From assembly GCA_947632645.1 (NCBI GenBank), contig CANRQB010000002.1, forward strand, positions 16,489 through 80,488: a stretch of DNA of 64,000 nt. The letters run 5' to 3'. The notes beneath the pieces were generated by a model. That model had not been told where the DNA came from, did no database searches, and saw only the letters and a list, made by a program, of their open reading frames with translations. This document shows positions 1,410 through 64,000 of this stretch, in pieces. Positions within the stretch are counted from its first letter, which is position 1. The number at the start of each line of letters is the position of its first letter. A program made the position numbers and the translations under genes. This DNA is from an uncultured Clostridia bacterium (GTDB lineage Bacteria > Bacillota > Clostridia > Christensenellales > UBA1242).

Positions 1410-1438
1410 TTGACAGGGAATAATTTTTGTGGTATAAT
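1410..1438 (+). promoter_or_regulatory. Sigma-A-type promoter of the thrS leader
   Basis: TTGACA (1410-1415), 17-bp spacer, TGg-TATAAT (-10 at 1433-1438). Confidence 0.65.
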
Positions 1439-7347: not shown

Positions 7348-7376
7348 TTGACAATTTGACTGTTTTAGTGTATAAT
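7348..7376 (+). promoter_or_regulatory. Sigma-A-type promoter of the ankyrin-repeat gene
   Basis: TTGACA (7348-7353), 17 bp, TATAAT (7371-7376). Confidence 0.65.
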
Positions 7377-7397
7377 GGCATCGGAAAAGGAGTTTTT

Positions 7398-24927: not shown

Positions 24928-24956
24928 TTGACTTTTTTTGGGCATTTTATTACAAT
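24928..24956 (+). promoter_or_regulatory. Sigma-A-type promoter of the 1341-aa surface protein gene
   Basis: TTGACT (24928-24933), 17 bp, TACAAT (24951-24956). This shows the ORF-track TTG start at 24928 is really the -35 box. Confidence 0.6.
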
Positions 24957-24999
24957 ATTTAAGTATAATTGTATTGCAAAAGCAAAATTAAGGAGCATT

Positions 25000-41311: not shown

Positions 41312-42817
41312 TTATGATTTTTTCTTTTTCTTTATTAGGGCTAGCAAGTTTTTAACATCGTAAAGGTTAAATATTTTTATAAACATCATCATCAAGCCAA
41401 CACATAATAGGCCAGATATCGTGGCTGAGATAAAATAGTTGAATAAGTGCCGCAAAATGTTGGCAACAAAATGGGTTAGCAAACTTACTGGTGCAACCAC
41501 AAGCGTGTATTTAAAGCTATTAGAAAATAAGTTAAATTTTAGGGCAGGTATTTTTTGTTTAATCTTTCTTAGGTTAAGTAGGGTTATTGTGGTCATGGAT
41601 AAAAAGAAGGAAACTATAACCGAATTTATGCCAATCAGCGGGGTTAAAATTACTAGGCAGGCAAGCAAAACCACAGAGCCCAAAATGTAGTTTATAAACG
41701 ATTTAACCTCCAAATTAAGCGCGTTTAATACACTGCCGGTTAGATTGCATAGCGTAATTGGCAGCACGCAAACGCCCGCCAACTGCAAAAGCACGCCAGA
41801 TAGCTGATTGTCGTATAAAATTATGCCAATCAAATCGCCAATTGCAAGATAGGTGGGTATAAATATCATGGCGATAAACATGCCCACTTCAAGCGCTTTT
41901 TTTACGTTAGATGCAATTTCTTCTTGCATATTTTTGGTGGCCATCGCGCTAATTGACGGGATAAGCACCATACTTATGCTGCCAATTATAGTCATCGGCA
42001 CAAACAACAGCGGCCAGGTCATGCCCATAATAACGCCAAAGCTTGCCACCGCCTCGCTTTTGGTGTAGCCGGCAACAATAAGCATGGTGGGGATAATAAA
42101 GGTGGTTAGTGGCTGCACAAGCGAGTTTGCAAGCCGCACACCAGTTATTGGCGCGGCGGATTTTATAACTGCAGAAAATTCGCGCTTGTTAACTCCAATT
42201 TTGCCATGCCTGAAATATATTATAACGGATAGCAGGGCAGAAATAAGGCAGGTTAGGTTAAACGCCACAGCCGAATACTTTGCCGCAACAAAATAATCAG
42301 TTATGTTTCTTAGCATAACAAAGGTGAGTGCAAACCTAAAAATCTGCTCGATAAGTTCGGTTAGCCCACAATTAAAATAGTCATTTTGCCCCCAAAGCGC
42401 GCCGCGAAAAACGGCATAAACCGCACTAAACAACACGGACGGCACAAGAATAATTAAAATTTCAACCGCGCGGTTATCGGTTAGTATAATTCCCCAGAAC
42501 GCACGCAAACCATAAACCAGCAAACTAGATAAACTTGCCACAATAAGCGCAATAATAAGCGCCGAGCCAACCAACTGATTGCGCTGTTTTAGTCGGTTGT
42601 CCACCTCGTATTTAGAAACCAGTTTGGCAGTGGTAAGCGGGATGCCGCTAGATACTAGCGTCATAAAAATGCCCAGCACGCTAGACGCCATTTGAAAAAG
42701 CCCAAGCCCCTCAGCCCCCAGTTTGCGCGAAAAATATATGCGGAACACAAAGCCAAGCGCACGCGTTATCACCGAGAATATTGTGGTTATCATAACCGCT
42801 TTAAAAAAAGTTTTCAT
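41312..42817 (-). CDS. MOP-superfamily flippase (SpoVB/YtgP/MurJ-like)
   Basis: 501 aa and about 14 TM segments. N-terminus MKTFFKAVMITTIFSVITRALGFVFRIYFSRKLGAEGLGLFQ is typical of SpoVB/MurJ-type polysaccharide or lipid II flippases. Confidence 0.7.
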   Translation of the reverse strand: MKTFFKAVMITTIFSVITRALGFVFRIYFSRKLGAEGLGLFQMASSVLGIFMTLVSSGIPLTTAKLVSKYEVDNRLKQRNQLVGSALIIALIVASLSSLLVYGLRAFWGIILTDNRAVEILIILVPSVLFSAVYAVFRGALWGQNDYFNCGLTELIEQIFRFALTFVMLRNITDYFVAAKYSAVAFNLTCLISALLSVIIYFRHGKIGVNKREFSAVIKSAAPITGVRLANSLVQPLTTFIIPTMLIVAGYTKSEAVASFGVIMGMTWPLLFVPMTIIGSISMVLIPSISAMATKNMQEEIASNVKKALEVGMFIAMIFIPTYLAIGDLIGIILYDNQLSGVLLQLAGVCVLPITLCNLTGSVLNALNLEVKSFINYILGSVVLLACLVILTPLIGINSVIVSFFLSMTTITLLNLRKIKQKIPALKFNLFSNSFKYTLVVAPVSLLTHFVANILRHLFNYFISATISGLLCVGLMMMFIKIFNLYDVKNLLALIKKKKKS

Positions 42818-43355: not shown

Positions 43356-46300
43356 TTATTCAGCTTTTGGCTTATCTGATTTGGATTTTGTAGTTCTTTT
43401 TGTGGATTTTTTGCCTTCTTCATCAGATTTTGCTGCATCTGTTTTATCTAAAGATTTTCCTGTGGATTTTGTTGCCTTTTTTGCAGTGTTTGTTTTGGCA
43501 TTTTTTGTTTTAGATGCAGTGGTTGCTGGTTTGGTCTCTTCGGTTGTGCTATCTTGCTCAGTTTGCTCAATCTCTTCAACCACACCAGTTGCTTGTGCTT
43601 CGCTTTCCAGGCGTTTTGTTATGCTTGCCATATACGATGCCGAGTTTACATACGCAATGTCGCTTTCCACACGCGCAATGTTAATGCCAATAGATGCAGA
43701 GGCTTTTTGATTTTGTTTTAACTCTTTTTCCAGTTTGCTGATATCCGATTTATTTGCACGTCTAATTTTCATCTCGCGCAGTTTGCTTAGGTCGGCTTTA
43801 TAAGTTTCTTCATACTTGGTGCGCTCGTCAGTTAAAGTTTTAAGTTCGCTGTTAAGTTCGGCAAGCTTTTCCTCTTTTAGCTGCATTGCCTTGCGCGCAT
43901 AGTATTGTTTAGACACTGTTTTGTTGCGGTCGTACTCATTTTTGGTTTTCTTGGCTGGCTTTTTAAATTTAACCTTGCGTAGAATTATGCCAACAACTGC
44001 AACTATAATGGTTAGTGCAAATAGGATAGATGATATAACATATGGCAATCCGCGCCAATTTATTTTATTTTTGCTTTCGGTGGTATCATCGGTGTTGGTA
44101 TCGTCTTGGTTTTCATCCAGCTCGGTTGCCAAAATTTTGGTGGTGGAATTTTCGGCTAGCTTGTTAAACTGACTATCGGTATAATCTAGTGAATTAAATT
44201 TAATATTTCCAATAAACAGTTCGCCCTTTAAACGCACATCTTCGTTACCAAAGTTTATAATTAAGTTAGAGGTTTTGTCTGCACTGGCTTTAACATAATA
44301 GGTGTAGCTTACAAAGTTTTTTTCTGCCACAACATTTTCAAAAGTGTTGTTTTCGTAGCCAGAGAATGCAATATTTAAGCCATTTTCGTCCGCATTGGAA
44401 GAAACTACATTTGTAAACAAACTAAAGCTTAAAATGTAATATTTTCCGCTTGCTAGGTTAAAGCCAATTTTGGTTGATACGCTACCCATGCCAAACTCGT
44501 TTAAATTTATCCTTAGGGCTTTTTCGTTATCCCAACCATTAGCTTCGGCTTGCAATTTTGCAGTTAAATCGGCATCGCCATAGTTGTAAATTTTTGCGTT
44601 TACAACCGATAGGTTAACGTTTTCGGCTGCGTAGTAGTTTGTATCTATAAGGTCGGACAAATCTGCTTTTGCCGCTGCGTTAATAAACTCTTGTTCGGTT
44701 ACATCGGTTTCAAATTTAACATTGTCTACAAACGTTGTGCTGGTACTTGTGCTAATTTTTACAACCAGGTTGGCAGATGCATCTGCTGCTTTAACATATA
44801 AACTTACATTTTGCCATTGCCCATTGTTGTTATAAACATCCAACGAGCAAAGCGAACAATCGTTATTGCTTCTTAGCAGCACTTCTACCTTTGCCTTAGA
44901 TAGTGTGTATATATCAAGCGAAAATTTTGCATAGCCGGTTGATAGCGAGGAACTGCCAGAGAAAGCAGATATTTCACCTGTTGCAGGGTACAGCATAAGC
45001 ACATTGCCCTTTTTCATGTTAGCATCATAGCTAGGTAGGTGAACATAAAAAGGCAAATTGTTTTGCTTATACAAGGCAGTGTCTGCCAAATTTACAATTC
45101 CATAATACTGATTGTCGCTATAGCCCGATTGGGTAAAAGTCCAATTTTCTGCATTAAGCGGATATGGGTTGGCTGCATCGGTTACACTAGCGTTATTAAA
45201 TTCACCATTAGTTACATATGGGGAAGAACTTGTTGTGGATGAGGATAAATCTAATTTAGAAATGTTGTTACCTGTTGTTGTGCTAGAATATTGCGCACTG
45301 GTGCAGATTTGACTTTCTACACTATAAATGTACAGCTTGCCAGAAAAACCAGAGGTGTTTAGTTTTAGTACGTATTCGTTTGCGTCGGTTTGGCTAGATT
45401 TTACCCAAAATTCATATAAACTGTAATCGGCAGAGCTAGATATTGCTAAACTTGCAACCTTTTCATCAGTTGGGTTATCTTTTGGTGCAAGTTTAAGGGT
45501 GGCACTGCCCGACGAGTTTTCTGTTTTAAGAGTTACAATAACCCTATTTATAAGGTGGCGATTAAAGGTGAAACTGTAATCGCTGTTGTCTGCCTTTTTA
45601 AACTCGGCTTCTGCGGTTGTTTGGTTGAAATTTAGCACTAAATCCTTAACATTTGCGTTGGTTTGGGTTGTGCCGGCAAACGATAGATCTTTGCCAGAAA
45701 CTTCGTTTGATACGGTGCGTTTATCTAAAGCTACATTATTTGGATTGCTAAGCAAAGTGTTGTACTCTTGCTCGTTAATTTTTTGCATAGACAAACTGTC
45801 AAACAAAATGTCGCCATTGCCGTTTAATATCATTGCTGGCTTAACTTTTAAGCTTTCTAGATTGTCTGTGGCAACAAGCAAGTTATATTCGTACCACGAT
45901 CCTTTTGGTGTAGAGATGGCAGATTTTTCTAATAAAACGATGTCGTTATTGTTGGCATCCAGCAGCGAAAATGTGCCTATACCATCGCGGTTAGAGGTGT
46001 TTATAAACACGCTAAATTTATAAAACGAGTTTTTGTCTAAATTTAGTGAATACGAGGTTTTGTATCCAAACTTTACATTATGACTTGTTTCAACATCCAC
46101 GTTGCTAGAAGTGTTATTGTCGCCTTCTTCCTTCATACTGCGCTTTGTGGTGCTGCTTATAAGTAGGACATATTTGTTTAAGCTTTGGTCGGCGTTGTAG
46201 CGCCTAGGGTATTTTAAATAATCGGCAGCAGTTAAATTTGCAATTCCTGTGGTTACAAGCTCTTTATTAGAATAGCCCGCGCCAGTTATAGCCTCAAATT

Positions 46301-46487
46301 GCGAACTTGATGGTGTTGCAAGCGTGCTGGAAGACCCGTCAAATTCGCCATTAGTTATGCTTGATTCGGCAAAAACAAAAGATTTATGCCCATAAAATAT
46401 AAAACATAAATTTGTGCAAAATAAAACTATTGCTAAAAATAAAACTATAAATAATCGTTTTAATTTAGATGAATTTTTAACTAACAT
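43356..46487 (-). CDS. Large surface protein: signal/TM, CBM-like beta-sandwich modules, TM helix, cytoplasmic coiled coil and Lys-rich tail
   Basis: ATG at 46487 chosen; the TTG at 46514 coincides with the predicted transcription start. NGEF-type module starts (ITNGEFDGSS, VTNGEFNNASV...ENWTF). TM LPYVISSILFALTIIVAVVGIIL. Heptad-rich segment, then KTKNAKTNTAKKATKSTGK...KSKSDKPKAE. Confidence 0.8.
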   Translation of the reverse strand: MLVKNSSKLKRLFIVLFLAIVLFCTNLCFIFYGHKSFVFAESSITNGEFDGSSSTLATPSSSQFEAITGAGYSNKELVTTGIANLTAADYLKYPRRYNADQSLNKYVLLISSTTKRSMKEEGDNNTSSNVDVETSHNVKFGYKTSYSLNLDKNSFYKFSVFINTSNRDGIGTFSLLDANNNDIVLLEKSAISTPKGSWYEYNLLVATDNLESLKVKPAMILNGNGDILFDSLSMQKINEQEYNTLLSNPNNVALDKRTVSNEVSGKDLSFAGTTQTNANVKDLVLNFNQTTAEAEFKKADNSDYSFTFNRHLINRVIVTLKTENSSGSATLKLAPKDNPTDEKVASLAISSSADYSLYEFWVKSSQTDANEYVLKLNTSGFSGKLYIYSVESQICTSAQYSSTTTGNNISKLDLSSSTTSSSPYVTNGEFNNASVTDAANPYPLNAENWTFTQSGYSDNQYYGIVNLADTALYKQNNLPFYVHLPSYDANMKKGNVLMLYPATGEISAFSGSSSLSTGYAKFSLDIYTLSKAKVEVLLRSNNDCSLCSLDVYNNNGQWQNVSLYVKAADASANLVVKISTSTSTTFVDNVKFETDVTEQEFINAAAKADLSDLIDTNYYAAENVNLSVVNAKIYNYGDADLTAKLQAEANGWDNEKALRINLNEFGMGSVSTKIGFNLASGKYYILSFSLFTNVVSSNADENGLNIAFSGYENNTFENVVAEKNFVSYTYYVKASADKTSNLIINFGNEDVRLKGELFIGNIKFNSLDYTDSQFNKLAENSTTKILATELDENQDDTNTDDTTESKNKINWRGLPYVISSILFALTIIVAVVGIILRKVKFKKPAKKTKNEYDRNKTVSKQYYARKAMQLKEEKLAELNSELKTLTDERTKYEETYKADLSKLREMKIRRANKSDISKLEKELKQNQKASASIGINIARVESDIAYVNSASYMASITKRLESEAQATGVVEEIEQTEQDSTTEETKPATTASKTKNAKTNTAKKATKSTGKSLDKTDAAKSDEEGKKSTKRTTKSKSDKPKAE

Positions 46488-46519
46488 AAACCCTCGTAAA
46501 ATTTCGTTTAACAAAATTA

Positions 46520-47320: not shown

Positions 47321-48028
47321 TTATAGTTCGTTAAAAAAGTTATAAAAATTTATTGCAATATCTATGGTGGAATAGCGCATTTTTTGCTTGTCTATAATAT
47401 AATTTTCATCATCAAAATTGTTTAAATTTTCGTTTATATTGTTTGCATAGGTTAAAAGCGAGCTATATTTGTGTTCTTTAAAATTTGTTTTCATATCGTT
47501 AATAGAAGGGGATAATTTTTCTAATATCAAACCTAAATTAGTGGCATAAACCCTTAAGCTATCTGTATTGTTGTCGTATCTTATATTGGCTTTAGATAAG
47601 CTGGATAAAACATCGTTGCAACTATCGTAAAAATCTACAAGGCATTGCTGATTTTTGCTTGTTATTTTGTTGTATTTCAATTTTTTTATAGACAGTGTAA
47701 ACACTTTTGCAGATGGGTGGTGGGGTATCAAATTTTCGCACACTTTTTCCGCATCCGATTTGTTAAAATAAAAGTTTGCTAGCACGTGGTAACTTGTGTC
47801 AAAATATATATACCCCGCTCCGGCTTGTTGTTTTATTGTGGTTGATAATTTTTGAGCGTCGTTATAGTTGGAAAAAACGCCCATTTCTACAAAATACAAA
47901 TTGGTATACTCATCCTTTTTTTGCATCAAAAACAACGCAGCACCAAATAAAAGGGTTAGTGCAACAATTATTATAACAAAGCCACCAGTTTTGGTTTGGC
48001 TGCTATATTTATAGTAAGAGTGTGCCAT
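47321..48028 (-). CDS. Membrane-anchored SPOR-like domain protein
   Basis: N-terminal TM. YFVEMGVFSNYNDAQKLSTTIKQQAGAGYIYF...FNKSDAEKVCENL resembles a SPOR peptidoglycan-binding domain. Confidence 0.5.
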   Translation of the reverse strand: MAHSYYKYSSQTKTGGFVIIIVALTLLFGAALFLMQKKDEYTNLYFVEMGVFSNYNDAQKLSTTIKQQAGAGYIYFDTSYHVLANFYFNKSDAEKVCENLIPHHPSAKVFTLSIKKLKYNKITSKNQQCLVDFYDSCNDVLSSLSKANIRYDNNTDSLRVYATNLGLILEKLSPSINDMKTNFKEHKYSSLLTYANNINENLNNFDDENYIIDKQKMRYSTIDIAINFYNFFNEL

Positions 48029-52963: not shown

Positions 52964-53389
52964 GTGGATATTAAAAAATCATACAGCCTGAAAGCAAACA
53001 AAAAGCAGTGTTTTGATGAAAAAACCTTGCAAGAGTTTGCCGCGCTGGATAGTTCGATAGAAAAATTTAACTACATCGGCGAATATGAAAACATCCGCGA
53101 CTGCATTGTAAACGAACTTGTTGGCAAGTTGTTTAAGCGAGAAAATATCGTTGATGCGCGCCTTGTGGATGAAGTTATGAGTTCCTTTAGTGATGAAACG
53201 GGCGGGCATGTTGCGGTCATACAAAAATATAGATATAATGAAAATAAAATAGATTTAATTTTGGTGGCGGATAACTGCTATGTTAGATATAACAAAACTG
53301 ACATTATATTAGATAGCGAACTAACCGCAATTTGGCGCGATGTGCTATCAATTTTGTACGATGATTATATCCCAAATTTAAATAAGTAA
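52964..53389 (+). CDS. Hypothetical protein (paralogue A of a tandem pair)
   Basis: GTG start 6 nt after AGGAG. The C-terminal ...LVADNCYVRYNKTD...LTAIWRDVLSILY parallels the next gene. Confidence 0.6.
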   Translation: MDIKKSYSLKANKKQCFDEKTLQEFAALDSSIEKFNYIGEYENIRDCIVNELVGKLFKRENIVDARLVDEVMSSFSDETGGHVAVIQKYRYNENKIDLILVADNCYVRYNKTDIILDSELTAIWRDVLSILYDDYIPNLNK

Positions 53390-53451
53390 GTTTTTTAAAA
53401 AGATATTGACAAAACAATTTTATATGATAATATAAAAGTATGAAGGGTGAT

Positions 53452-53928
53452 ATGTTACCTGTAGACATAGATCGTTTTTGGATAGCTCACGTTTATAGAA
53501 AAAAGAGCGGCAGGCAAGATTTTTTAAATAAAGAATATTTAAACAAACTAGCCGAACTAAGGCCGCAGATTGCTGGCACCGATTTTATTGCCGACTACTA
53601 CGATTTAAAGGGCGAGATAGATGATTTGGCAGCCAAGTTTTGTGTATCTAACCATATTATAAATAAAGGTTTTAAAGAAACTTATGTTAGCATTGTAACC
53701 GATAAAAATGGGGAGCGCCTAGGGCTTGAAGTGCAATATTATTATGGCAAAAATTTTCAGTATGATACTGATGAATATGTTGGCCTAGTTTTAACAGCAA
53801 AGGACTGCTATGCTGTTTATTATGTCGGTGATGGTTCTGGAAATTGTTTTACAAACCCAGATAAAAATCTAACCAATATGTGGCACGAAATTTTGGCTAA
53901 AAAATATGGCACTACACTAAAAAAATAA
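53452..53928 (+). CDS. Hypothetical protein (paralogue B); alternative start at 53440
   Basis: Own TTGACA promoter (53406-53411). The ATG at 53452 follows AAGGGTG. C-terminal ...LTAKDCYAVYYVGDG...LTNMWHEILAKKYG. Confidence 0.55.
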   Translation: MLPVDIDRFWIAHVYRKKSGRQDFLNKEYLNKLAELRPQIAGTDFIADYYDLKGEIDDLAAKFCVSNHIINKGFKETYVSIVTDKNGERLGLEVQYYYGKNFQYDTDEYVGLVLTAKDCYAVYYVGDGSGNCFTNPDKNLTNMWHEILAKKYGTTLKK

Positions 53929-54144: not shown

Positions 54145-54936
54145 ATGCAAAAAAGGTTGGATGGCGAGTTTTATAAAAAGGGTTTAGGTCAAAATTTTAT
54201 TTATGACTATAATCTTTTAAATGCTATAGCCAACGATGGGGAGGTGGGGTATGCCGACACCGTGCTAGAAATTGGCGCAGGTGCAGGCACACTAACTAAA
54301 GTGTTGTGTAGTAAGGCCAAAAAAGTTATATCGTTTGAAATAGATGAAACACTAAAATCAACCCTAAATAAACTAGCAGAACAAAACAAAAATTTAACCT
54401 TAATATTTGCCGACTTTTTAAAGGCGGATTTAACCAAAATTTTAGATACCCCCACCCGGGTGGTAGCAAACATACCATACTACATAACCACACCAATAAT
54501 TTTTAAGTTAGTTGAGCATATAAAAAACATAAAATCCATACTGGTGCTTGTGCAAAAAGAAGTTGCCATGCGCTTTAATGCTGCACCAAAAACCAAAGAT
54601 TACGGCATAACAAGTGTTATTTTGCAGGCGCTGTTTGAAACTAGCATACCGCGCATTGTTAAAAAGGAGTGCTTTACCCCAGCGCCAAAAGTGGATAGCG
54701 CGCTTATAAAACTTATTCCGCACAACAAATACAACATACAAAATTTAGATGCGTTTTCTGCCTTTGTTCATCAAGCATTTTCCATGCGCAGAAAAACACT
54801 TGTTAACAACCTAAAAACCAAATATGACAAAACAAAAATTGAGCAAACCCTAATAAACTATGGCTATTCAGCATCCGCCCGTCCGGAAGAAATAACTGTA
54901 GCTGATTTTGTAAACATTTTTGCCGAGCTAGATTAA
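54145..54936 (+). CDS. rsmA: 16S rRNA (adenine1518/1519-N6)-dimethyltransferase
   Basis: KKGLGQNFIYD, VLEIGAGAGTLT and NIPYYITTPI motifs. Confidence 0.92.
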   Translation: MQKRLDGEFYKKGLGQNFIYDYNLLNAIANDGEVGYADTVLEIGAGAGTLTKVLCSKAKKVISFEIDETLKSTLNKLAEQNKNLTLIFADFLKADLTKILDTPTRVVANIPYYITTPIIFKLVEHIKNIKSILVLVQKEVAMRFNAAPKTKDYGITSVILQALFETSIPRIVKKECFTPAPKVDSALIKLIPHNKYNIQNLDAFSAFVHQAFSMRRKTLVNNLKTKYDKTKIEQTLINYGYSASARPEEITVADFVNIFAELD

Positions 54937-54953
54937 ATTATAAATTTAATTTT

Positions 54954-54984
54954 CCGCCTTTTGCATTTTTAGGCGGTTTTTTTT
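54954..54984 (+). terminator. rsmA intrinsic terminator
   Basis: CCGCCT-N11-AGGCGG followed by a T-run. Confidence 0.7.
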
Positions 54985-55066: not shown

Positions 55067-55095
55067 TTGACTTAAAAATTTAAAAATAATATAAT
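55067..55095 (+). promoter_or_regulatory. Sigma-A-type promoter of the giant ORF
   Basis: TTGACT (55067-55072), 17 bp, TATAAT (55090-55095). Confidence 0.6.
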
Positions 55096-55142
55096 TATTT
55101 TGTAGAAAATTGTAGATAATAATTTTTAAGGGTATCAGGGGT

Positions 55143-58100
55143 ATGAAAAAACGAATATTTAAAATGCTTGGCATTGTGCTGGCAAGCGTGCTTGGCTTGT
55201 TTGGCGTAATTGCTGGTGTGCTAGCATTAACTGGCAAATTTAAGGCGGATCCAATTTATCCATCGCGCCTTTCTTTTGAAAACAACACTCTATCTGTAAA
55301 TTATGATGTGGACAATCCAAATCAGCTGTACACTTTCACATTAAATGCGCAGTCCGATAAAGCAAAGCAGGTTAACAAAAAAGAGGTGTACATAAACCTA
55401 AATAGGCAAAATTTGGTAGCAGGTAAAAATTTAATTATAATAACCAATCGCTCGGGCGATCCGTTGCCTGCTCAGCAGGATGGCTTTTATAAAATAAATT
55501 GTAACGAGCCAACCTATTTTAAAGTTAATAGGGAGGCAATCGAGGCAACATACACCGCCAACGAATATGGCTATGTAACAGTTCATGGCGAGGCAAGGCG
55601 GGATGGCGTGGTTTCTGTTTCCACAAAAGAGGATCTTAAAATAAATGTAGATATAATGGCAAAAGAGTTAAAAATTTTTGCCGAGGGATACATCACCACT
55701 CAAGCAACAAATGGCGGCACCGCTGTTTTATTAGAGGCTGGCTCGCCACTGAATTTGGAATTTGAAGTGGGTCCTAATAACGCGCTTTCTAGCTACACAG
55801 GCGCAACAAAACAAGTGGAAATTTATTGTGACCACACAGACGGAACATACACCTTAATAACACAAAACAATTGTGCCGAATATAACCTAACTTGGGTGGG
55901 CGGTGCCGGCATGAAAAACACAACCTACGGGCGCAATATTTATAGCTCGGGCTATCAATTTTTATCCGAGCAAGATTCGATAACCAAAAGTTTTGCCGCA
56001 GCAATCTATCCAAGCATGGATTATACTGATGAGGCAGATATAAACGACGTTAACACTGTATACAACAACCACATATCTAAAATACCAAATTGCAGATTTA
56101 CCATTGATGTGCAGGCAAAAGATGTTTCTAGCATAGAACTATCAAACAATGCAAACTACACCCTAAATGTGGATAACACCATAGATGTTGCCAACCTTGT
56201 GCAGATGACTGGCACTGGGGCAGATTCTCGCTTAAAAGAAATTGCTTTTGGCATTGCGGATAAAGATAACTCTTTCCGTAAAATCAACATAGAATTTGTG
56301 TCGGAGGATGGGGCAAGTGTGCTTGCAAGGCAAAATCCACAAAACTATCAGATCACAAACTTGGGTGGCTATGCCATAACTATAGATGATGTTAGATACA
56401 CACTTAATTTAGACAATCGCCTAACGCTTAAATCATCCGACGGGCAAAAAGAGTATCGCCCAATTGTAAGCGTGCAAGCGGACTCTACAATCTACACATC
56501 AAAATTGGCTGCATTTGTGCTTAAAAATGGCGAAAATTATTCGCTTGTTACCCTTTCTAGCGGCAGTTATATGGACTTTTACATTAATTCTACCGACTTA
56601 ACTGGCAATGTATACACAACCGCAACCAAAAACGAATTTGATTACGAGATAGAAAAAAGTGGCGAATCAACCTTTACCTTTAAACCAAAAAGCGAAATTG
56701 CTGATACAAATATAGTGCTTAATATGTTTGTGATTAACAGCAACGGCAAAATTGTTTTGGCAAGCAACCATTGCACAATTAATATAGGAGTGGTGGTTGG
56801 CCAACCAACAAAAGAAGTGCAAAATTTTTCTGCCAATATTTCGTATGGCGAAACGGGAAGAGCTTTTAACACAGCCGATATCAACACACTTTTCAATTTA
56901 AAAAACTCTACTGGCAGTGCGTACAGCTATTCCACATTTGCGCTTGCAACATTGGATACAACTTCTGGTTTGGATGTTATAGATAAATCGTTTAGCTATC
57001 AGGGCAACACCTACAAATTGCTTGGATATAATAGGGATGGCCAATTTGTAAACGAAGTGCGTGCAAATGCAAACATAATTTCTAAGGATTTAACCAATAC
57101 AAAAATTTATTTGGTGCTTTTAAAAACCAATGATGATTTGTCTAGCTATGTAAACACGCACAGCACAATCGAAGTTAACACAGTGTATCTAGATCGAGCT
57201 ATTTCTACAAGCGTAAATCTAAATTTGCAAGAGTCTGACTTGATATTTAATTTTTCCACTGAGGATCCAAACTATCTTATAAAAGAAAATAACGATGCAA
57301 AATTTGTTTATCATGTGTATGGCGGTGCGCAAAGCAACACGCTAACCATAACCTCAAACAATAACTTAATTTTGCAAGATATAAATGCGCTTTACGATAG
57401 CCAAAATTTGGTGTCGCTGTTAAACGAAGGTGGCAACACAGCGGTAGAAAACAATAATTTTGATGTTGAATATTCGTCTAGCGGCTACACAATAAAATTT
57501 GCCGACAATATTGTGCCACCAAGTTCAACCGATTATTATAGGTTTGCGCTTAATGTGGGCGGGCAAATTGTTTGCAGCACACATGTGTACTTTATCCCTA
57601 ACACACCAGAAATCATTCAACTTAAAATGGAGGGTTTGGCAGAAAATGCACCTATAAATTTGGCAGCAAGCGAACAAACAGCGGTTAGCGATAATTTCCC
57701 ATATATCCAAATTTACATAGGGTGGGATGCCAACCAATACACATATCAATATAAACTTGTGTACAACGGCGCGGAATACGATATAACCAATCCAAAACTC
57801 TTCTTTAATAGCACTGCAGCAAAATCAGACGGATTTGGATTTATTGCAAACCCATATCCAACTTTGGATAGAAATTTAAGTTATGTTGTAAAATCTGGTG
57901 ACGAATATCTACGCCTAAATTTGGATGGGGACAACCCATTTGAAGTTTTAGGTGTAACAGCCAGCCAATATGCAGTTATATCAATAACTTGCAGCAATGC
58001 CAATCCAGATAGTTATGATAACGCTCAAGTAACCTTCTTTATGCGCGTAAAAATTGACGAAGAGGAAGAAAACTCTTTTGAAACCACTGCGGATAAAAAC

Positions 58101-61100
58101 GATAATATAATCGAGCAAAGCACCATAAATTTACTAAATGGCGGATACTTTAACTATACACACGATAGCCAGCAAATATCTATCGATGGGGCAGTGTTCT
58201 CCGATTTAAAAGACAACACTCCTTTTGGCGAAAAATACAACATTCAAATCTTATCACCAGTGTTGGATGCTAGCCAGGCTGTTACCCGTGCGACCGATGG
58301 CCAACTTGTGGCACAGATAACCGACGATGCCAACCACGTAATTTTAAAAATAGAGTATAAACAGGTTGGCGATAAATACGATCTGGTTTTCACACGCGAA
58401 TATAACAAAAACACCTTGTTATATATCTCTTTTAACATCAAGGTTAAAACCGATTTTACACCAATAGCAATCAGTTTGCGCTTTAGCCCAACCCTGCAAG
58501 TAAATAGAAATTCAGAGTGGAATATGGGTTTTTATGCGGACACCACCGTTTTGCTTTACGAAGTGTACAATGACGACATTGGCATGAACGAAAGCAAAAA
58601 TAAGCCAGTGTTTAAAATTTTAAACAAAAATAAGGATGGTGCAAAAATTGTTGTTGAAGTAACCAATCCATCTTCTTCTACCACCACAGTTGAAAGTGCA
58701 GGTAGCGAAGATATAAATGCCGAATATCAATTTAAAGCTGTTGGTGAATATAAGTTTAAATTTTACACCCAAGCAGATGGTGCCGAAAAAACCCCAATAA
58801 TCGAGGAAGAATATACAATTACAGTTAAAGAAAATTTAGTGGTTGTGCTAAACGATAGTTACCAAACCAACGCAATCGATTTGCAGTCAGATACTAACTA
58901 CACTTTATCCAACTACATAAGTTTAAGGGCATACACCACAAACAACAACATCGTGTATGGTAAACAGGTGGATAATAAGGTTAACATGTATTCGGATAGC
59001 GGTTTGCTTCAAGTGCAAGATTTAAGCGCGCAACTAAACAATTTAACCTTTACATCTACCGATATAAACATTTCTGGTGGCAAAATAAATGTTGGTTGGA
59101 TAGCCGAACTTAACTTTGATGATGAAATTAATTTAACACTAAATTATAACGATACACCAATTGTAATTTGGGGTTACGACGAGGTTAAAAATCTAGTTGT
59201 TATAGATAGCATAGCCGCGCACGTAACAAATAAATATAAGGTTACAACAAAACAAAGCGCAATAAACACCTATCAAGAGTATGATTTTAACACATTATTT
59301 GATCTGGCTAATGGTGGACTAAATCTAAAAATTAATTCAGTGCAACTTTCTAGCAATGCAAACACCGATATAAAATTTGCAGTAACCGACGGCAAGGTTA
59401 GTGTAAGCGTTGCAAATGCCAACCTGCCTGAATATACTGTAAACGCAATATTCACCTTTGTTGATGCTAATGATGAAGAAAAGATATTAACTGGCGAATT
59501 TAGCTTTACTATCAAGCCATACAAACCAGCACAAGTTGCCGACGAACTAACAGTTGCCAAGGATGCCAATGTGGATATACTAAATTTGGCATATGGAATA
59601 GAAGCCGGCAAACAAGTTGCAGAAAATGATACATGTATAAGCAAAATTGTGCTAACACAAATTACAATAAACAACAATCCAACCAACATAACTGGCGAAA
59701 TTGGCTATAGTGTAGTGGAATCTAGCTGGCAAGTTTTAAATAGCAACCTTATTGACCTATCCTTGTACACAGCCGATATTAACACAGATAGTGTGCAAGC
59801 TAATATAACCATACAAATAGTGTACACAGATGGCTACACCTATACATACGATTTAACAATAACAATAACCAACAATGTAAACATACAAATTAACTATCCA
59901 ATAAATGTAAGCGATGTTGTTAACGAAGAGAACCCACGTTTATTTTACTTAGAGAATGAACATCAAAATATTGTTTTTGATAATTACGAAGTTGTAACCC
60001 TGCAAGAACATATGGTGGATGGCGCCATGTCTACCACCACAACAATAGATTTAGCATACGATAGTTTGCTTAACTTTTCACGCGTAAGTGTAAATAGGGC
60101 AGAAAATGGCGTGGTTAATACATATCGTTTGCCAGCGGATGCCACCATTTCGCTTTATGCACAATATATAGGGCAAAATAGTTCGTACGGGCTAAATAAC
60201 GGTATTACTATTAATGGCACCAGTATCAGCTTTAGTGTGCCAAATATAATAAATGAAACGCAAATGTATTTTGTGTTTAAAATTCAGTATCAGGATGCTC
60301 AAGCAAAATTCTATCTAATTAAAACCGCATGTATCGACCGCACTAAGATTGAAAATACATACTACCAAACTACCAAAAACGCATTTGTAAATTATAGCGA
60401 TGAGCAGTTTGTAAATGTTGGGCAAGAAGTGGACATACTTGGGAAAAGCGTTAAAACCCAGTTAGACAGTTTGTTTTTTAGCCAACCAAACTACACGGCA
60501 GATAATATAAAACTTTTCTACCTAGATGCAAACTATTTAGGCGAAAAATCTATTGATGGTCTAATTAATATCAAGCGCGGCGGGCTGTTAAATTCAAATG
60601 CAACCTTAAGTGCGCCAGCCGACCACTTAACCTTAAAAATTATTGTTGTGTATAGCGATAATGAAAGTATATTTGCCCCAATTGGTTTGTTAAATGTTTA
60701 CATAACTCCAACAAACAGCGAAGTTATAGACGACAATTTATTACAAAACGTATCAGAAGGCATAACAGGTGAATATATGGCAAACTTAACCGAACTTGGC
60801 GAAAACACCATATTTAAAGATGGCGATTATTCTGAAACACAATTTGTTGTGGGCAATTTGCCAGACGGGTTTACGCTAGGCGAGGACGGCACAATAACAT
60901 ACAAAGGCAAAACCATATTAACCTTAACTAACGATACAGTTAAATTGGAAAACTTTGCCGATGACAAGCTTACTTTCACTGTTACATATACACTATATAG
61001 TGGCTTAACCGTAAAAGTAAACTACACTTTAAATGCTATGTCAATTTATGAGCGTGGTAGCGAAAGATTGGGCGATAAATTTGTAGATGGCAAATTTAAC

Positions 61101-64000
61101 AACTATCTAGATCTTTCTAAATACATACCACAAAATTATAATGGCAAACTAACCTTTAGCTATAATGGCAGCACTAGCCAGCAAATAGATTATAAAGGGC
61201 AGGATGTAACCGGCACGCTATTAGAAAATGAAAATAGGGTAAAATATGGCTACGAAAATGGCACTCTTGTGTTGTACTTCATCCAAGATAACCAGCAATA
61301 CACCTTAGAAAACTTTATTATAAACATCGATAATCTGGCGGCAGATATCACCTCAATAAATTTAACCATAATTGTAGAAAGCGAGGTTAATATAACCTCT
61401 AATGGCGAAGGTACAAATAAGGATAACGCTCACCGACTAACAAACATCAACTACACTGAGGACAGAAAAGTAAACTATTATGAGGCGAAGGGTAGTTCTA
61501 TTTATGTAGAAAAAACCACAGTGGACAACACCGAATTGGTGCAATATAAAATTTACGATGGCAATGATAATTCTGGCACACTACTTGTAACCATAACCAC
61601 AAATAGGTCTGCCAAATTTAAAATCAATTTCCGCAATAGCAGCGATTTAACAGTTGCAACCGATATCGATAAAATGATTGTCCTTAACAACAACGAGGGC
61701 AGCGTAACTATAGATGAAAGCACAGAAATCAGTTTTGCACACTTGGCAGTAGCTTACACCATTGTAATGGACTTAGATGTGGAGAATTACAGGCAAATCA
61801 ACGATGGGCGCAATAGATACTATCTAACACTGCCAAACACCTATAATGGGCTAACCGCGGTGTACGAAGTGGTTAACACAACTAGCGAAGTGGTTAAGCC
61901 AAATGATAGTTACTCGGTAGAAGAGTTGTTTACCCAGCAAAGCGCAGTAAACGACATTTTAACTGATACTGATAATGTTATAATTAACAAATTTAAGTTT
62001 AAGGTTAAAGATTTAAACGGGCAGGATGTAAGTGATTATTCGCCATCCGACATGGGCTTTACAATAACAGAAAGCGTTAACCATATAAGAATTAACGAAT
62101 ACGATAGGTTAGGGTATATCTCGGTTTCGGATGACCACAGCCGTTTAACAATAAACAATGTAACAAATAGTCAAAATTCTAGTGTTCTTTTAACCAACTA
62201 TGCCGGTGTAAGTTGCCAGTATAGTTTCAACATTTTGCCAAACGGCAACGGGCTGGATAAAGCTGATGGCGGCAATCAAATTTTTGAAGATGATAGCGAG
62301 CGCTACACCACTCACTTTATAAGCGACACAGAAACAACTTCAATGCAAGAGAAGGCCCTTACGCTTGGCAAAATAAGAAGCGGGGATAACACCAACATTT
62401 ATATAACCAAAATTAGCATAACCGAAGGCAACTCTCAACCTTTAACTGCCGATGGGCTAACAATTGAAAAAGGGGTTATTTCTAGCAATAATTACACATA
62501 TAGGATATTTGTAAAAAGCAATATCGTAAAACTTGCAATTACGCGCACTAGTGGAAATTTAACTAGCCGACTTATTGTAAACTTTACCCTATATGGCAAC
62601 AGCAAAATAGAAGATAACTTTAGCGTGTACATCTACAATGCAACCGAAACCGAAAGTGGGCAAAAGCAATATTTTGGTGTGGATAACAACACAATAGATT
62701 TATCAAAAATTTATATGTACACCAGCAATGTAAGTGATCCACTAGATCTAACTTGGGATATAGTTAAAGAACAAAGCTCGGCAACAATAGAACCCACAAA
62801 TAGAAATATCAGTTTAGACAACCTATTTACGCAAGCCAACAATATTTTAACACTAAAAAATCAGGTGCAAAATATAAATGTAACACTAAAAATTAACATT
62901 GTAAATAAATTAAAATTGCAAGATAAAGATGTGCAAAAAATTATAGCAGAAAAATCGTTTGGATTTACAATAAAAATGGGTATATCGCTGTATCTGCATA
63001 AAGATAATGAATATCTAAACTTTGACTCTAAAGCTAACGAATTGAAATCGCAACCTCTGGTTTGCAAGTTTAATACCTTGCCATACACTTGGAATTTAGC
63101 AAGCATTATTAATGTAAACGGCCACAGCTACAACATAGTGGCAAAAACAGCTGATGGCAGTAAGGAAGTGCCTTTAACTTCGGTTATATCCAATGTAACC
63201 TGCTCTAATATTAGTGATTTAGAGTTTAACAATAATAATGGCTCTAAAATAATCTTTAATTCGGATATAAATGATAGCCAAATATATTATCTTGAATTTA
63301 CTTTAATTGGTAACGGAACAACTATAACCCAAACACTTCCAGTTAAATTTGAGGGGGTTGTTCAGGTTAGCTATGCCAATGGTGGCGAAGATAGGTCTAG
63401 CATAATGGATAACGACCAAAAAGGGTATAACTCTGGCGCTGTAATTTATCCTTTTAAAAGCGAAAACACAGGGTTGGGCACAACCGCAATAGTTGTAACG
63501 GTAGCTGACGGATTTACCGCGCAAGTAAAATATCGTTATAATATTGTGCTAAGCAGTCAGTTCTACAATAATGCTAAAGCTTCAAATTGGTTTGATGGCC
63601 CTATTGGCGAGGATACTCCAGATATTAATATTAAAAACCTTAACGAGGCACTAACTTTGCCAACCACATCGCATGTAGAGCAGGTGATTGTTATATATCA
63701 ATTCCAAATTGTGTATAAAAAACAAAGTGGGAGTGAAAGCGAAAATTATCAGTCTGAGTGTTATTATGGAATGTATCAGGTTAATGGCATAAATTATGTG
63801 GATAAACTAGCAGACAACAAAGAAATAGATGTAGATAAAGATAACTACATTTTAACAGAAGACAGCAATTCGCTTTTATCGCTCATTTATTTTGAACAAA
63901 CCTTTACAGTGGATGGCGACCTTGGCACTTTTGGCGAAATTTCGTTTAAACTAAAGCAAGGGGATGACGGCTTAGTTTGTGTGCTAATTAAAGGTGAAAA
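55143..64000 (+). CDS. Giant membrane-anchored surface protein, 3'-truncated by the window edge (at least 2,952 codons)
   Basis: Hand translation from ATG 55143 meets no stop up to codon 63996-63998. Upstream in-frame TAG at 55113-55115. N-terminal signal-anchor MKKRIFKMLGIVLASVLGLFGVIAGVLALTG. Asn/Thr/Ser-rich beta-type sequence throughout. Absent from the ORF track because no stop lies inside the window. Confidence 0.85.
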   Translation, partial: MKKRIFKMLGIVLASVLGLFGVIAGVLALTGKFKADPIYPSRLSFENNTLSVNYDVDNPNQLYTFTLNAQSDKAKQVNKKEVYINLNRQNLVAGKNLIIITNRSGDPLPAQQDGFYKINCNEPTYFKVNREAIEATYTANEYGYVTVHGEARRDGVVSVSTKEDLKINVDIMAKELKIFAEGYITTQATNGGTAVLLEAGSPLNLEFEVGPNNALSSYTGATKQVEIYCDHTDGTYTLITQNNCAEYNLTWVGGAGMKNTTYGRNIYSSGYQFLSEQDSITKSFAAAIYPSMDYTDEADINDVNTVYNNHISKIPNCRFTIDVQAKDVSSIELSNNANYTLNVDNTIDVANLVQMTGTGADSRLKEIAFGIADKDNSFRKINIEFVSEDGASVLARQNPQNYQITNLGGYAITIDDVRYTLNLDNRLTLKSSDGQKEYRPIVSVQADSTIYTSKLAAFVLKNGENYSLVTLSSGSYMDFYINSTDLTGNVYTTATKNEFDYEIEKSGESTFTFKPKSEIADTNIVLNMFVINSNGKIVLASNHCTINIGVVVGQPTKEVQNFSANISYGETGRAFNTADINTLFNLKNSTGSAYSYSTFALATLDTTSGLDVIDKSFSYQGNTYKLLGYNRDGQFVNEVRANANIISKDLTNTKIYLVLLKTNDDLSSYVNTHSTIEVNTVYLDRAISTSVNLNLQESDLIFNFSTEDPNYLIKENNDAKFVYHVYGGAQSNTLTITSNNNLILQDINALYDSQNLVSLLNEGGNTAVENNNFDVEYSSSGYTIKFADNIVPPSSTDYYRFALNVGGQIVCSTHVYFIPNTPEIIQLKMEGLAENAPINLAASEQTAVSDNFPYIQIYIGWDANQYTYQYKLVYNGAEYDITNPKLFFNSTAAKSDGFGFIANPYPTLDRNLSYVVKSGDEYLRLNLDGDNPFEVLGVTASQYAVISITCSNANPDSYDNAQVTFFMRVKIDEEEENSFETTADKNDNIIEQSTINLLNGGYFNYTHDSQQISIDGAVFSDLKDNTPFGEKYNIQILSPVLDASQAVTRATDGQLVAQITDDANHVILKIEYKQVGDKYDLVFTREYNKNTLLYISFNIKVKTDFTPIAISLRFSPTLQVNRNSEWNMGFYADTTVLLYEVYNDDIGMNESKNKPVFKILNKNKDGAKIVVEVTNPSSSTTTVESAGSEDINAEYQFKAVGEYKFKFYTQADGAEKTPIIEEEYTITVKENLVVVLNDSYQTNAIDLQSDTNYTLSNYISLRAYTTNNNIVYGKQVDNKVNMYSDSGLLQVQDLSAQLNNLTFTSTDINISGGKINVGWIAELNFDDEINLTLNYNDTPIVIWGYDEVKNLVVIDSIAAHVTNKYKVTTKQSAINTYQEYDFNTLFDLANGGLNLKINSVQLSSNANTDIKFAVTDGKVSVSVANANLPEYTVNAIFTFVDANDEEKILTGEFSFTIKPYKPAQVADELTVAKDANVDILNLAYGIEAGKQVAENDTCISKIVLTQITINNNPTNITGEIGYSVVESSWQVLNSNLIDLSLYTADINTDSVQANITIQIVYTDGYTYTYDLTITITNNVNIQINYPINVSDVVNEENPRLFYLENEHQNIVFDNYEVVTLQEHMVDGAMSTTTTIDLAYDSLLNFSRVSVNRAENGVVNTYRLPADATISLYAQYIGQNSSYGLNNGITINGTSISFSVPNIINETQMYFVFKIQYQDAQAKFYLIKTACIDRTKIENTYYQTTKNAFVNYSDEQFVNVGQEVDILGKSVKTQLDSLFFSQPNYTADNIKLFYLDANYLGEKSIDGLINIKRGGLLNSNATLSAPADHLTLKIIVVYSDNESIFAPIGLLNVYITPTNSEVIDDNLLQNVSEGITGEYMANLTELGENTIFKDGDYSETQFVVGNLPDGFTLGEDGTITYKGKTILTLTNDTVKLENFADDKLTFTVTYTLYSGLTVKVNYTLNAMSIYERGSERLGDKFVDGKFNNYLDLSKYIPQNYNGKLTFSYNGSTSQQIDYKGQDVTGTLLENENRVKYGYENGTLVLYFIQDNQQYTLENFIINIDNLAADITSINLTIIVESEVNITSNGEGTNKDNAHRLTNINYTEDRKVNYYEAKGSSIYVEKTTVDNTELVQYKIYDGNDNSGTLLVTITTNRSAKFKINFRNSSDLTVATDIDKMIVLNNNEGSVTIDESTEISFAHLAVAYTIVMDLDVENYRQINDGRNRYYLTLPNTYNGLTAVYEVVNTTSEVVKPNDSYSVEELFTQQSAVNDILTDTDNVIINKFKFKVKDLNGQDVSDYSPSDMGFTITESVNHIRINEYDRLGYISVSDDHSRLTINNVTNSQNSSVLLTNYAGVSCQYSFNILPNGNGLDKADGGNQIFEDDSERYTTHFISDTETTSMQEKALTLGKIRSGDNTNIYITKISITEGNSQPLTADGLTIEKGVISSNNYTYRIFVKSNIVKLAITRTSGNLTSRLIVNFTLYGNSKIEDNFSVYIYNATETESGQKQYFGVDNNTIDLSKIYMYTSNVSDPLDLTWDIVKEQSSATIEPTNRNISLDNLFTQANNILTLKNQVQNINVTLKINIVNKLKLQDKDVQKIIAEKSFGFTIKMGISLYLHKDNEYLNFDSKANELKSQPLVCKFNTLPYTWNLASIINVNGHSYNIVAKTADGSKEVPLTSVISNVTCSNISDLEFNNNNGSKIIFNSDINDSQIYYLEFTLIGNGTTITQTLPVKFEGVVQVSYANGGEDRSSIMDNDQKGYNSGAVIYPFKSENTGLGTTAIVVTVADGFTAQVKYRYNIVLSSQFYNNAKASNWFDGPIGEDTPDINIKNLNEALTLPTTSHVEQVIVIYQFQIVYKKQSGSESENYQSECYYGMYQVNGINYVDKLADNKEIDVDKDNYILTEDSNSLLSLIYFEQTFTVDGDLGTFGEISFKLKQGDDGLVCVLIKGE

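Follow-up and report, generated by a model that had tools for sequence, protein, structure and literature searches.

This analysis concerns a stretch of 64,000 nucleotides (the whole of which is called 'the window' below) from an uncultured Clostridia bacterium of the UBA1242 lineage of Christensenellales (GenBank assembly GCA_947632645.1, contig CANRQB010000002.1, positions 16,489 to 80,488 of the forward strand), and in particular the giant open reading frame (ORF) that begins at an ATG at position 55143 on the plus strand and continues past the far edge of the window. That ORF is a genuine gene, neither an artefact nor a pseudogene, and its product is, on balance, probably a lineage-specific and strongly transcribed surface fibre, composed of immunoglobulin-like (Ig-like) modules, anchored in the membrane at its N-terminus and serving in contact or adhesion. 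We infer its outward orientation, the retention of its anchor, its high expression, the length of the fibre and its adhesive or contact role from the evidence described below.

Translation of positions 55113-63998 demonstrated that the frame set by the ATG at 55143 contains 2,952 stop-free codons, extending through the last full codon at 63996-63998, and that the nearest in-frame stop on its 5' side is a TAG at 55113-55115; both observations had been made in a first-pass annotation of this DNA, which was prepared from the letters and a list of ORFs. The remaining five frames of the same stretch contain between 125 and 302 stops each and no open run longer than 143 codons, and the chance of a stop-free run of 2,952 codons, estimated from base composition, is approximately 1e-95. 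The annotation had further suggested that the giant ORF was absent from the list for want of a stop inside the window, and the ORF-calling tool does indeed drop any ORF that runs off its source; the eight short antisense ORFs that had been reported between 55 and 64 kb correspond to exactly eight at a threshold of at least 60 amino acids. A protein in the NCBI collection, encoded on a 92.5-kb contig (P0001; 3,322 amino acids), was found to be 100% identical to the giant ORF across its entire window part. Because of that identity, the portion visible here (55143..64000, plus strand) comprises codons 1-2952 of 3322, and the gene is predicted to run on for approximately 1,111 bases outside the window and to end at a window coordinate of about 65111; where it ends and what lies downstream of it in the window genome are deduced from P0001 and from orthologous loci. 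The G+C content of the gene (0.35-0.38) matches that of the remainder of the window, and DNA repeat scans of the gene revealed no consequential tandem or dispersed repeat, only trivial short matches, in agreement with the earlier statement that it holds no long near-identical repeats.

While the first-pass annotation described the protein as belonging to no recognisable family, that description proved to be correct only in part: no curated family matches the protein, and it is not an orphan, since approximately 84 full-length clusters of relatives were recovered. A word-indexed search of 5.8 billion proteins returned only four other clusters, of 3,333-3,509 amino acids and without names or Pfam domains, and a second search, seeded with a distant member, added further members; one with an N-terminal alignment yielded fragments only. 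When 1.84 billion cluster representatives were searched exhaustively with a HMMER profile, 140 matches were obtained at E<=1e-3, among which 84 are at least 2,800 amino acids in length, with a mean of 3,430, a standard deviation of 172 and a coefficient of variation of 5%. The remaining profile matches are mostly short N-terminal fragments off short contigs, and nine are unrelated proteins containing multiple Big_2 domains. The family alignment is collinear from end to end, even though identity with the window protein is in general no higher than about 21-25%, and reaches 40% in the closest genome. In all 27 genomic loci that were fetched, one long uninterrupted frame occupies the position of the giant gene; it spans 3,224-3,600 codons in 22 of them and 856-3,238 codons in the five where the contig ends within the gene. 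With orthologues intact at 3.2-3.9 thousand amino acids and pairwise ratios of nonsynonymous to synonymous substitution (dN/dS) of 0.09-0.32 among them, the giant ORF is a single gene, as had been proposed, and is under purifying selection. A prior description of this protein family was not found in the literature.

The genomic setting of the gene, like its length, is conserved. The order GroEL, LeuRS (on the minus strand), RsmA, giant gene, an 81-amino-acid ORF, SepF, LspA, RluD and Tig is found in nearly all loci with flanking sequence; one exception is the locus of the family member P0003, where the downstream neighbours differ. Compared with their counterparts in the window, the housekeeping neighbours show 56-78% identity, rising to 87-92% in the closest genome. 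The conserved order, together with the comparison of these values with the identities of the giant protein itself, indicates vertical inheritance at a fixed site and with a fixed length, accompanied by sequence change several-fold faster than that of the neighbours. The small protein encoded between the giant gene and sepF (17729-17974 in locus L001, 20410-20709 in L002 and 13826-14071 in L008) is 81-99 amino acids in length and 68-78% identical across genomes, and belongs to no Pfam family. It was considered as a membrane partner of the giant protein and rejected, its product being a soluble helical protein.

The N-terminus, which the first-pass annotation read as either a signal peptide or a signal anchor, holds what is by far the best-conserved part of the protein, the hydrophobic segment together with the ten residues that follow it. 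A short basic tail (MKKRIFK, residues 1-7; 55143..55163, plus strand), in which K3, I5 and F6 are conserved and which charge bias suggests to be cytoplasmic, precedes a single predicted transmembrane helix (residues 8-31; 55164..55235, plus strand) that carries the motif G21-xxx-G25-xx-A28-xx-G31. The helix is indicated by hydropathy, where the sole Kyte-Doolittle peak falls at residues 4-30, by AlphaFold, which places a helix at residues 3-29, and by conservation: across the 84 clusters, G21 is retained in 96%, G25 in 100%, A28 in 98% and G31 in 100%. It is the only hydrophobic segment in 82 of the 84 family members (two extra segments found elsewhere are internal). Immediately after it lies a juxtamembrane motif, G-K-F-K-x-P-x-x-Y-P-x-x-L-x-F (residues 31-45; 55233..55277, plus strand), which is conserved more strongly than any other stretch in the family, with K32 retained in 94% of clusters, F33 in 100%, P40 in 99% and F45 in 100%. 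The spacing of small residues in the pattern G-xxx-G-xx-A-xx-G is of the type associated with helix packing, and we take the motif to point to oligomerisation or to a partner in the membrane.

No other device for retention at the cell surface was detected. None of the 84 members possesses a C-terminal hydrophobic anchor, the C-terminus of P0001 is devoid of an LPXTG motif, and Pfam and NCBIfam searches of the window product returned no SLH, CWB2 or other wall-anchoring domain; the same curated libraries and the same C-terminus bear out the earlier remark that no catalytic or LPXTG motif is to be recognised. The N-terminal helix would therefore appear to be a retained membrane anchor. Its likely orientation is with the N-terminus inside and the C-terminus outside, to judge from the distribution of charge: in 82 members the mean net charge of the N-terminal flank is +2.9, as against -1.5 for the 30 residues past the helix, and the bias favours this arrangement in 80 of those 82. 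A lipoprotein interpretation was examined and rejected, because P0001 contains no cysteine before residue 120 and a lipobox cysteine is not conserved in the family. A cysteine at position 22, within the helix and in a lipobox-like context (GFTGCVVG), is present in one subclade only (P0005, L017 and L024); the lspA gene found downstream is part of the housekeeping block.

The large region that follows the helix is rich in asparagine, threonine, serine, isoleucine and tyrosine, with a net charge of -158 and 0.5% cysteine, a composition that is typical of exported proteins; N-glycosylation sequons are not enriched (68 observed, versus 60.5 +/- 7 in shuffled sequences). AlphaFold models, calculated for residues 1-1200 and 2151-3322 with a family alignment of 21-23 sequences, bear out the beta-strand-like alternation that had been noticed by eye. 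The first model (mean predicted local distance difference test score, pLDDT, of 74) comprises one helix and then near-continuous beta strands arranged in units of the size of a beta-sandwich, while the second (mean pLDDT of 67) likewise consists mostly of beta strands, with the last approximately 470 residues modelled at 80-90 and displaying a few helices beside the strands. Foldseek searches at E<=1e-3 returned 109 matches in the PDB for the first model, and 14 in the PDB and 79 in BFVD for the second. The matches listed are predominantly generic tandem arrays of Ig-like domains, at 7-13% sequence identity, and among them are a nucleoporin of the Dictyostelium nuclear pore (9hcj), hydin-like proteins of the ciliary central apparatus, protocadherins, DSCAM and Robo, as well as alpha-2-macroglobulins, the GhpA grappling-hook base, the S-layer proteins Sap and SbsB, the Ig-like domains of PrgB, and phage Ig proteins; no enzyme or toxin fold is prominent among those listed. 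Weak matches to the binding region of SraP (E=2e-3) and to SGBP-B (E=5e-3) came from a search with the whole tile, in which the C-terminal 470 or so residues were not isolated, so that a specific distal domain may have escaped notice.

These models, which provide the structure prediction that the first-pass annotation had recommended for the detection of Ig-like or adhesin folds, predict that the modelled two thirds of the protein are arrays of beta-sandwiches. By extension, the ectodomain is estimated to contain approximately 3,290 residues, corresponding to roughly 30 modules of about 100-110 residues each, and typical dimensions of Ig domains would give it an extended reach on the order of 100 nm, well past the Gram-positive wall. 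Three regions can be distinguished within the visible part. The membrane-proximal modules (residues ~41-600; 55263..56942, plus strand) contain an invariant C120-N121-E-P-x-Y125 and are all-beta in the model, with pLDDT mostly between 70 and 90; a single remotely recognisable module, described below, lies at residues ~880-1000; and the remaining modules (residues ~1001-2952; 58143..64000, plus strand), assigned from the 2151-3322 model and its Foldseek matches to Ig-like arrays, are divergent and belong to no recognisable family. Within-clade identity is highest over the membrane-proximal 600 or so residues in all four clades compared; in the clade of P0005 it is 0.88-0.96 in that region, versus 0.65-0.8 at residues ~750-1050 and ~1650-2100 and in windows near the C-terminus. 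A conserved base combined with variable outer parts is as expected for a protein whose foot is embedded in conserved cell structures and whose far end is exposed.

Searches of curated libraries established how far these modules have diverged. The window product (2,952 amino acids) gave zero Pfam and zero NCBIfam matches at E<=1; Pfam searches of two other family members gave none at that threshold for P0003 and, for P0028, two sub-threshold chance matches, neither of them to Big_2. PHROGs contained nothing meaningful, and no PDB sequence was matched by the single protein, nor by a family profile of 3,283 positions at E<=10; the confident match to an already well-described adhesin family that the first-pass annotation had named as grounds for refutation was absent from Pfam, NCBIfam and PHROG. 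The possibility of a cryptic tandem-repeat protein was also rejected, since the best probability in an all-versus-all hhalign comparison of 120-residue family tiles was 28%. One module is an exception to this general lack of resemblance. The segment at residues ~880-1000 (57780..58142, plus strand) was identified as Big_2-like by the profile search, by hidden Markov models (HMMs) built from individual tiles, and by hhalign. The family profile matches the multi-Big_2 proteins mentioned above only through its positions ~930-1095, and five such proteins, when scanned, contained 11-15 Pfam Big_2 domains each. Against these proteins the tile HMMs covering residues 836-1045 gave 43-57 domain hits each, the 941-1080 tile gave 2, and the others none. 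In hhalign comparisons with a Big_2 profile, which was seeded from the same tile and is biased to it, the tile beginning at residue 881 scored 96%, the adjacent tiles 75% and 10%, and all others less than 3%. Pfam's own Big_2 model (PF02368) does not match the window product at E<=1. Because the signal is confined to residues 836-1080 with the tile HMMs and to ~821-1060 with hhalign, a single module among some thirty appears to be still recognisable, remotely, as a bacterial Ig-like domain of group 2; the others may have diverged beyond detection or be of other origin.

The sequence upstream of the gene contains the elements expected for an independent unit of transcription. An intrinsic-terminator-like hairpin follows rsmA (ORF 54145-54936; Pfam RrnaAD, E=1e-58) and consists of CCGCCT, an 11-nucleotide loop and AGGCGG (54954-54976), followed by eight T residues (54954..54984 in all, plus strand). 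It is visible in the sequence, as had been reported, and was missed by an automated terminator scan because its loop exceeds the 8-nucleotide limit of that scan. A near-consensus sigma-A/sigma-70 promoter, TTGACT-17-TATAAT, with 11 of 12 consensus matches, is situated at 55067..55095 (plus strand), where it too had been placed by the earlier annotation. Exact TTGACW-N17-TATAAT sites number three in the window (1410-1438, 7348-7376 and 55067-55095), against 0.02 expected by chance; the first of these precedes a threonyl-tRNA synthetase gene, the second overlaps the start of an ankyrin-repeat ORF, and the third precedes the giant gene. A promoter of the form TTGAC(A/T)-17/18-TATAAT, with 11 or 12 of 12 matches, lies no more than 250 nucleotides 5' of the orthologous start codon in each of the 21 loci examined, and intergenic gaps of approximately 100-600 nucleotides separate the gene from its neighbours on both sides in orthologous loci. 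The upstream terminator, the flanking gaps and the conserved consensus promoter together uphold the earlier proposal of an independent transcription unit; because the gene possesses its own consensus promoter, its transcription is probably strong and constitutive. Directly after the -10 box is a conserved 5' leader (55100..55123, plus strand) that comprises a direct repeat of TTGTAGA at 55100-55106 and 55110-55116, with a spacing of 10 nucleotides, and then TAATAAT. The leader element is found at the same position in L001, L008-L016 and L027, and is kept in most clades despite protein identities of about 21%; it may serve as an operator or leader signal. A purine-rich, Shine-Dalgarno-like stretch, AAGGGTATCAGGGG (55128..55141, plus strand), precedes the ATG, and is related to the GCATTTAGGTAGGGG that is found just 5' of the start codon in most orthologues.

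The carriers of this gene are uncultured gut Clostridia. Genomic loci were recovered by searching with the juxtamembrane motif as a pattern; all 19 derive from metagenome-assembled genomes (MAGs) sampled from the gut, with rabbits, sheep (colon) and humans (Hadza and Nepalese samples) among the sources. Their titles name 'uncultured Clostridia bacterium', 'Candidatus Onthoplasma sp.' and 'Christensenella sp. UBA4626', and NCBI places Onthoplasma in the Christensenellales. One locus, L016, is contig JBKSNA010000043 of MAG KY236-132, which has been assigned to the genus Onthoplasma in the family UBA1242, with an assembly of 791 kb and 782 genes (PMC12306168). Genomes of UBA1242 are mostly smaller than 1 Mb and are without most biosynthetic pathways; they display an incomplete glycolysis, lack an F0F1 ATPase, standard transporters and flagella, and have kept sporulation genes (PMC12306168). 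A partner-dependent lifestyle was proposed for the family in that study, which noted that unnamed hypothetical membrane proteins might act in cell-cell contacts and which does not describe the giant gene (PMC12306168). Contigs of 804 kb and 815 kb carry members of the giant protein family, consistent with genomes of about 0.8 Mb, in which a gene of 10 kb would occupy approximately 1.2% of the sequence.

The mechanism that we propose for the surface fibre is as follows. The short basic tail would stay in the cytoplasm and the one conserved transmembrane helix would anchor the protein, while some 3,290 residues would be exported and fold as about 30 consecutive Ig-like modules. The conserved base would dock in the membrane, by oligomerisation or through a membrane partner, and the distal modules, which evolve faster, would face the surroundings. 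The fibre would thereby make physical contact, holding the cell by adhesion or as a tether to microbial partners, host mucus or particles, in cells that would have to obtain most of their metabolites from outside. Several points weigh against this proposal. No ligand-binding or adhesive domain was recognised in the Pfam, NCBIfam or PDB sequence searches. Adhesins typically contain repeats, vary in copy number and occur patchily, and the non-repetitive, fixed-length and core-like character of the giant protein fits a structural role as well as it fits an adhesive one. The first 15 residues after the helix are basic (+2.0), so that the charge difference across the membrane is small there; the orientation is accordingly likely yet unproven, the bias being clear over 30 residues and small over 15. 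A signal-peptidase site such as I-M-G|K is possible by sequence, and residues 2151-2305 are unreliable in the second model, as an effect of the fragment alignment. Finally, the placement of the window's own organism in UBA1242 follows, in this analysis, from orthology and synteny; its GroEL is only about 62-66% identical to that of the other loci, L001 excepted (87%), and the organism may therefore be a deeply branching relative of the carriers whose biology is described above, or belong to a sister group.

A bolder version of the same idea, which must be regarded as tentative, is that the giant protein is the main cell-cell attachment organ of partner-dependent (episymbiotic or parasitic) UBA1242, and thus the Firmicute equivalent of the giant contact proteins found in Patescibacteria and DPANN archaea. 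Under that proposal the constant length would set the distance to the partner, the modules would be non-repeating so that recombination could not shorten the protein, and the invariant helix would couple it to an uptake or signalling partner. The episymbiotic lifestyle on which this version depends is itself a hypothesis (PMC12306168).

A rather doubtful alternative to a contact fibre is that the protein builds or spaces the envelope, as an S-layer- or brush-like coat whose fixed length would set the thickness of a surface zone or protect the cell. Its core-like distribution in single copy, the 5% coefficient of variation in length, the lack of a recognised adhesive domain and the Ig-array S-layer proteins Sap and SbsB among the Foldseek matches would all suit a coat; so would the consensus promoter conserved at all 21 loci examined, a hint of high and constitutive expression, and the near-invariant transmembrane motif, which is compatible with regular self-association. 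Against it stand the absence of any SLH, CWB2 or other wall-binding domain from the library searches and the much smaller size of known S-layer proteins; the faster evolution of the distal parts relative to the base, although compatible with a coat, fits exposure and interaction.

Release from the membrane, by cleavage of a Sec signal peptide to give a giant soluble or loosely wall-associated exoprotein, appears unlikely. A type I signal-peptidase site is formally possible, in that a small residue (G31) ends the helix, with isoleucine or leucine at position -3. The hydrophobic stretch, however, is approximately 23 residues in length, which is long for a signal peptide, and is the most conserved part of a protein of ~21% identity, whereas cleaved signal peptides are normally poorly conserved; moreover, an invariant K-F-K-x-P-x-x-Y-P follows directly after the helix, and without the helix the protein would be left with no retention device. 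A reversed topology, in which the N-terminus is outside and the bulk of the protein forms a giant cytoplasmic scaffold, perhaps linked to division through the downstream sepF, is more improbable still. It draws on the basic flank after the helix (+2.0 over 15 residues) and on the constancy of the 81-amino-acid ORF and sepF as neighbours, and must be set against the acidic C-terminal flank over 30 residues and the 80 of 82 members that favour the N-in arrangement, the Big_2- and Ig-like arrays and acidic, Asn/Thr/Ser-rich composition typical of exported proteins, an evolution far faster than that of the cytoplasmic neighbours, and gaps of 98-558 nucleotides to the downstream 81-amino-acid ORF and sepF, with no promoter coupling seen. 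An assembly artefact, chimera or decaying pseudogene, for which nothing speaks but the general distrust of very long ORFs assembled from metagenomes, has a negligible probability and is dismissed because intact orthologues with the same architecture occur in independent assemblies from many samples and hosts, uninterrupted in 27 of 27 loci and of 3,224-3,600 codons wherever a contig holds the whole gene, because the family is collinear from end to end with dN/dS values of 0.09-0.32, and because the gene has native base composition and no repeats to mislead an assembler.

Comparison of the giant protein with previously described systems places the proposed membrane-anchored fibre most readily beside the fibrillar adhesins, which are characterised by Monzon and Bateman (PMC8286594, PMC9210967) as long, beta-rich, filament-like extracellular strings of Ig-like domains that evolve rapidly and are hard to annotate. 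With such proteins (for example SasG/Aap, Bap and LigA/B) it is predicted to share a long Ig-like surface stalk. There are also differences: (i) the stalks of fibrillar adhesins typically consist of tandem copies of a domain, whereas the modules of the giant protein are without detectable mutual sequence similarity; (ii) fibrillar adhesins possess a recognisable and usually distal adhesive domain, and none was recognised here; (iii) they are retained by LPXTG and sortase, by wall-binding repeats, by an outer-membrane module, as autotransporters or through the retention module of a type I secretion system, rather than by an N-terminal transmembrane helix; and (iv) they are variable and patchy in distribution, whereas the giant gene is single-copy, syntenic and of fixed length. 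With Big_2 proteins (PF02368; invasin- and intimin-type and multi-Big_2 surface proteins) the homology extends to residues ~880-1000 only, at the level of profiles and below the reach of the Pfam model.

The proteins Giant1-5 of Apilactobacillus kunkeei offer a second parallel, being 3,000-8,000 amino acids in length, encoded in a Firmicute genome of 1.5 Mb, rich in asparagine, elongated, and predicted to act at the surface or in contact (PMC12863079); Giant4 is, as predicted for the protein described here, largely an array of beta-sheet domains (PMC12863079). Only in Giant1-5, however, is there a Sec signal peptide that is cleaved, followed by a beta-solenoid at the N-terminus, long internal repeats of an imperfect kind, and wall-binding domains of the DUF5776 and SH3b-like types at the C-terminus (PMC12863079); the giant protein has no DUF5776, no repeats and no homology to them in a database search. 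The S-layer proteins Sap of Bacillus anthracis and SbsB of Geobacillus share with it chains of Ig-like beta-sandwiches, at Foldseek E values of 1.7e-8 to 1.9e-6 and at the level of the fold only, and presumably a strong expression; these proteins are roughly one fifth of its size or less, are anchored to wall polymers by SLH domains, form two-dimensional lattices and, as S-layer proteins, rank with the most abundant in the cell, whereas the giant protein has a transmembrane helix and neither SLH nor CWB2 domains. Giant surface proteins are also a feature of other genome-reduced, partner-dependent microbes, namely the episymbiotic Patescibacteria (candidate phyla radiation, CPR) and the DPANN archaea (SPEARE proteins, Nanohaloarchaeota), and giant genes are reported for the Omnitrophota (bioRxiv 10.1101/2023.11.21.568195). 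By analogy, the resemblance would lie in the largest gene of a very small genome, a presumed dependence on others and a proposed role in contact; these systems differ in belonging to other phyla and in bearing no sequence relation, and no enzymatic domain, whether protease, lytic or similar, was detected in the giant protein. In their biological setting, as opposed to their sequence, these giant surface proteins may be the nearest parallel. Taken as a whole, the known kind is the giant Ig-like surface fibre, and five respects are new: non-repeating modules, a fixed length, a near-invariant N-terminal helix anchor, vertical inheritance in a housekeeping neighbourhood, and a conserved consensus promoter in a lineage of ~0.8-Mb genomes.

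Several other features of the window were noted in the course of these analyses. Two further large proteins, of 1,364 amino acids (24928-29022, plus strand) and 1,052 amino acids (43356-46514, minus strand), have no Pfam match and resemble type I membrane proteins, in that each begins with a signal peptide, continues as a large ectodomain and ends in a transmembrane helix followed by a lysine-rich tail. Together with the giant gene they fill 16.1 of the 64 kb, close to the quarter of the window that had been estimated, and all three encode membrane proteins; the large surface proteins of this organism are seemingly anchored by transmembrane helices and not by LPXTG motifs. Paralogy of the two with the giant protein was considered and rejected (BLASTP E>=0.24, and a type I topology), and L002 encodes a protein of ~1,024 amino acids, again without a Pfam match, at a position corresponding to that of one of the large window proteins. 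The ankyrin-repeat protein mentioned above (322 amino acids; 7356-8324, plus strand; Pfam Ank, E=3e-23) belongs to a class that is uncommon in free-living bacteria and typical of host-associated ones. Between the LeuRS-type synthetase gene and rsmA are two ORFs without family (52964-53389 and 53440-53928, plus strand; 141 and 162 amino acids); L001 contains four ORFs at that site, two of them 43-49% identical to these, and tblastn found none in more distant loci. Possible sporulation or wall genes include a YtxC-like ORF (605-1357, plus strand), a Polysacc_synt flippase that is maybe SpoVB- or MurJ-like (41312-42817, minus strand) and an ORF with a weak SPOR match (47321-48028, minus strand), in line with the sporulation genes reported to be kept in UBA1242. 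T-box leaders are common before aminoacyl-tRNA synthetase genes in Firmicutes. No Rfam family reaches gathering score anywhere in the 64-kb window, the regions upstream of its two aminoacyl-tRNA synthetase genes included, and tRNA genes are likewise absent.

UBA1242 and its genome-reduced relatives among the Clostridia occur widely in the guts of animals and humans and are uncultured; in chickens they increase with age and are negatively associated with body weight (PMC13155120). The giant gene, intact and of constant length in every lineage sampled, is the best candidate for a cell-contact fibre of these tiny-genome gut Clostridia. Its conserved N-terminal motif and syntenic position together provide a marker for the lineage, and for protein science it presents a case of some 30 Ig-like modules that have mutually diverged beyond recognition while their total length has remained fixed. 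For the biology of the organisms, it is the most tangible molecular lead to date on the way these cells make contact with their environment, and it opens to direct test whether they depend on partners.

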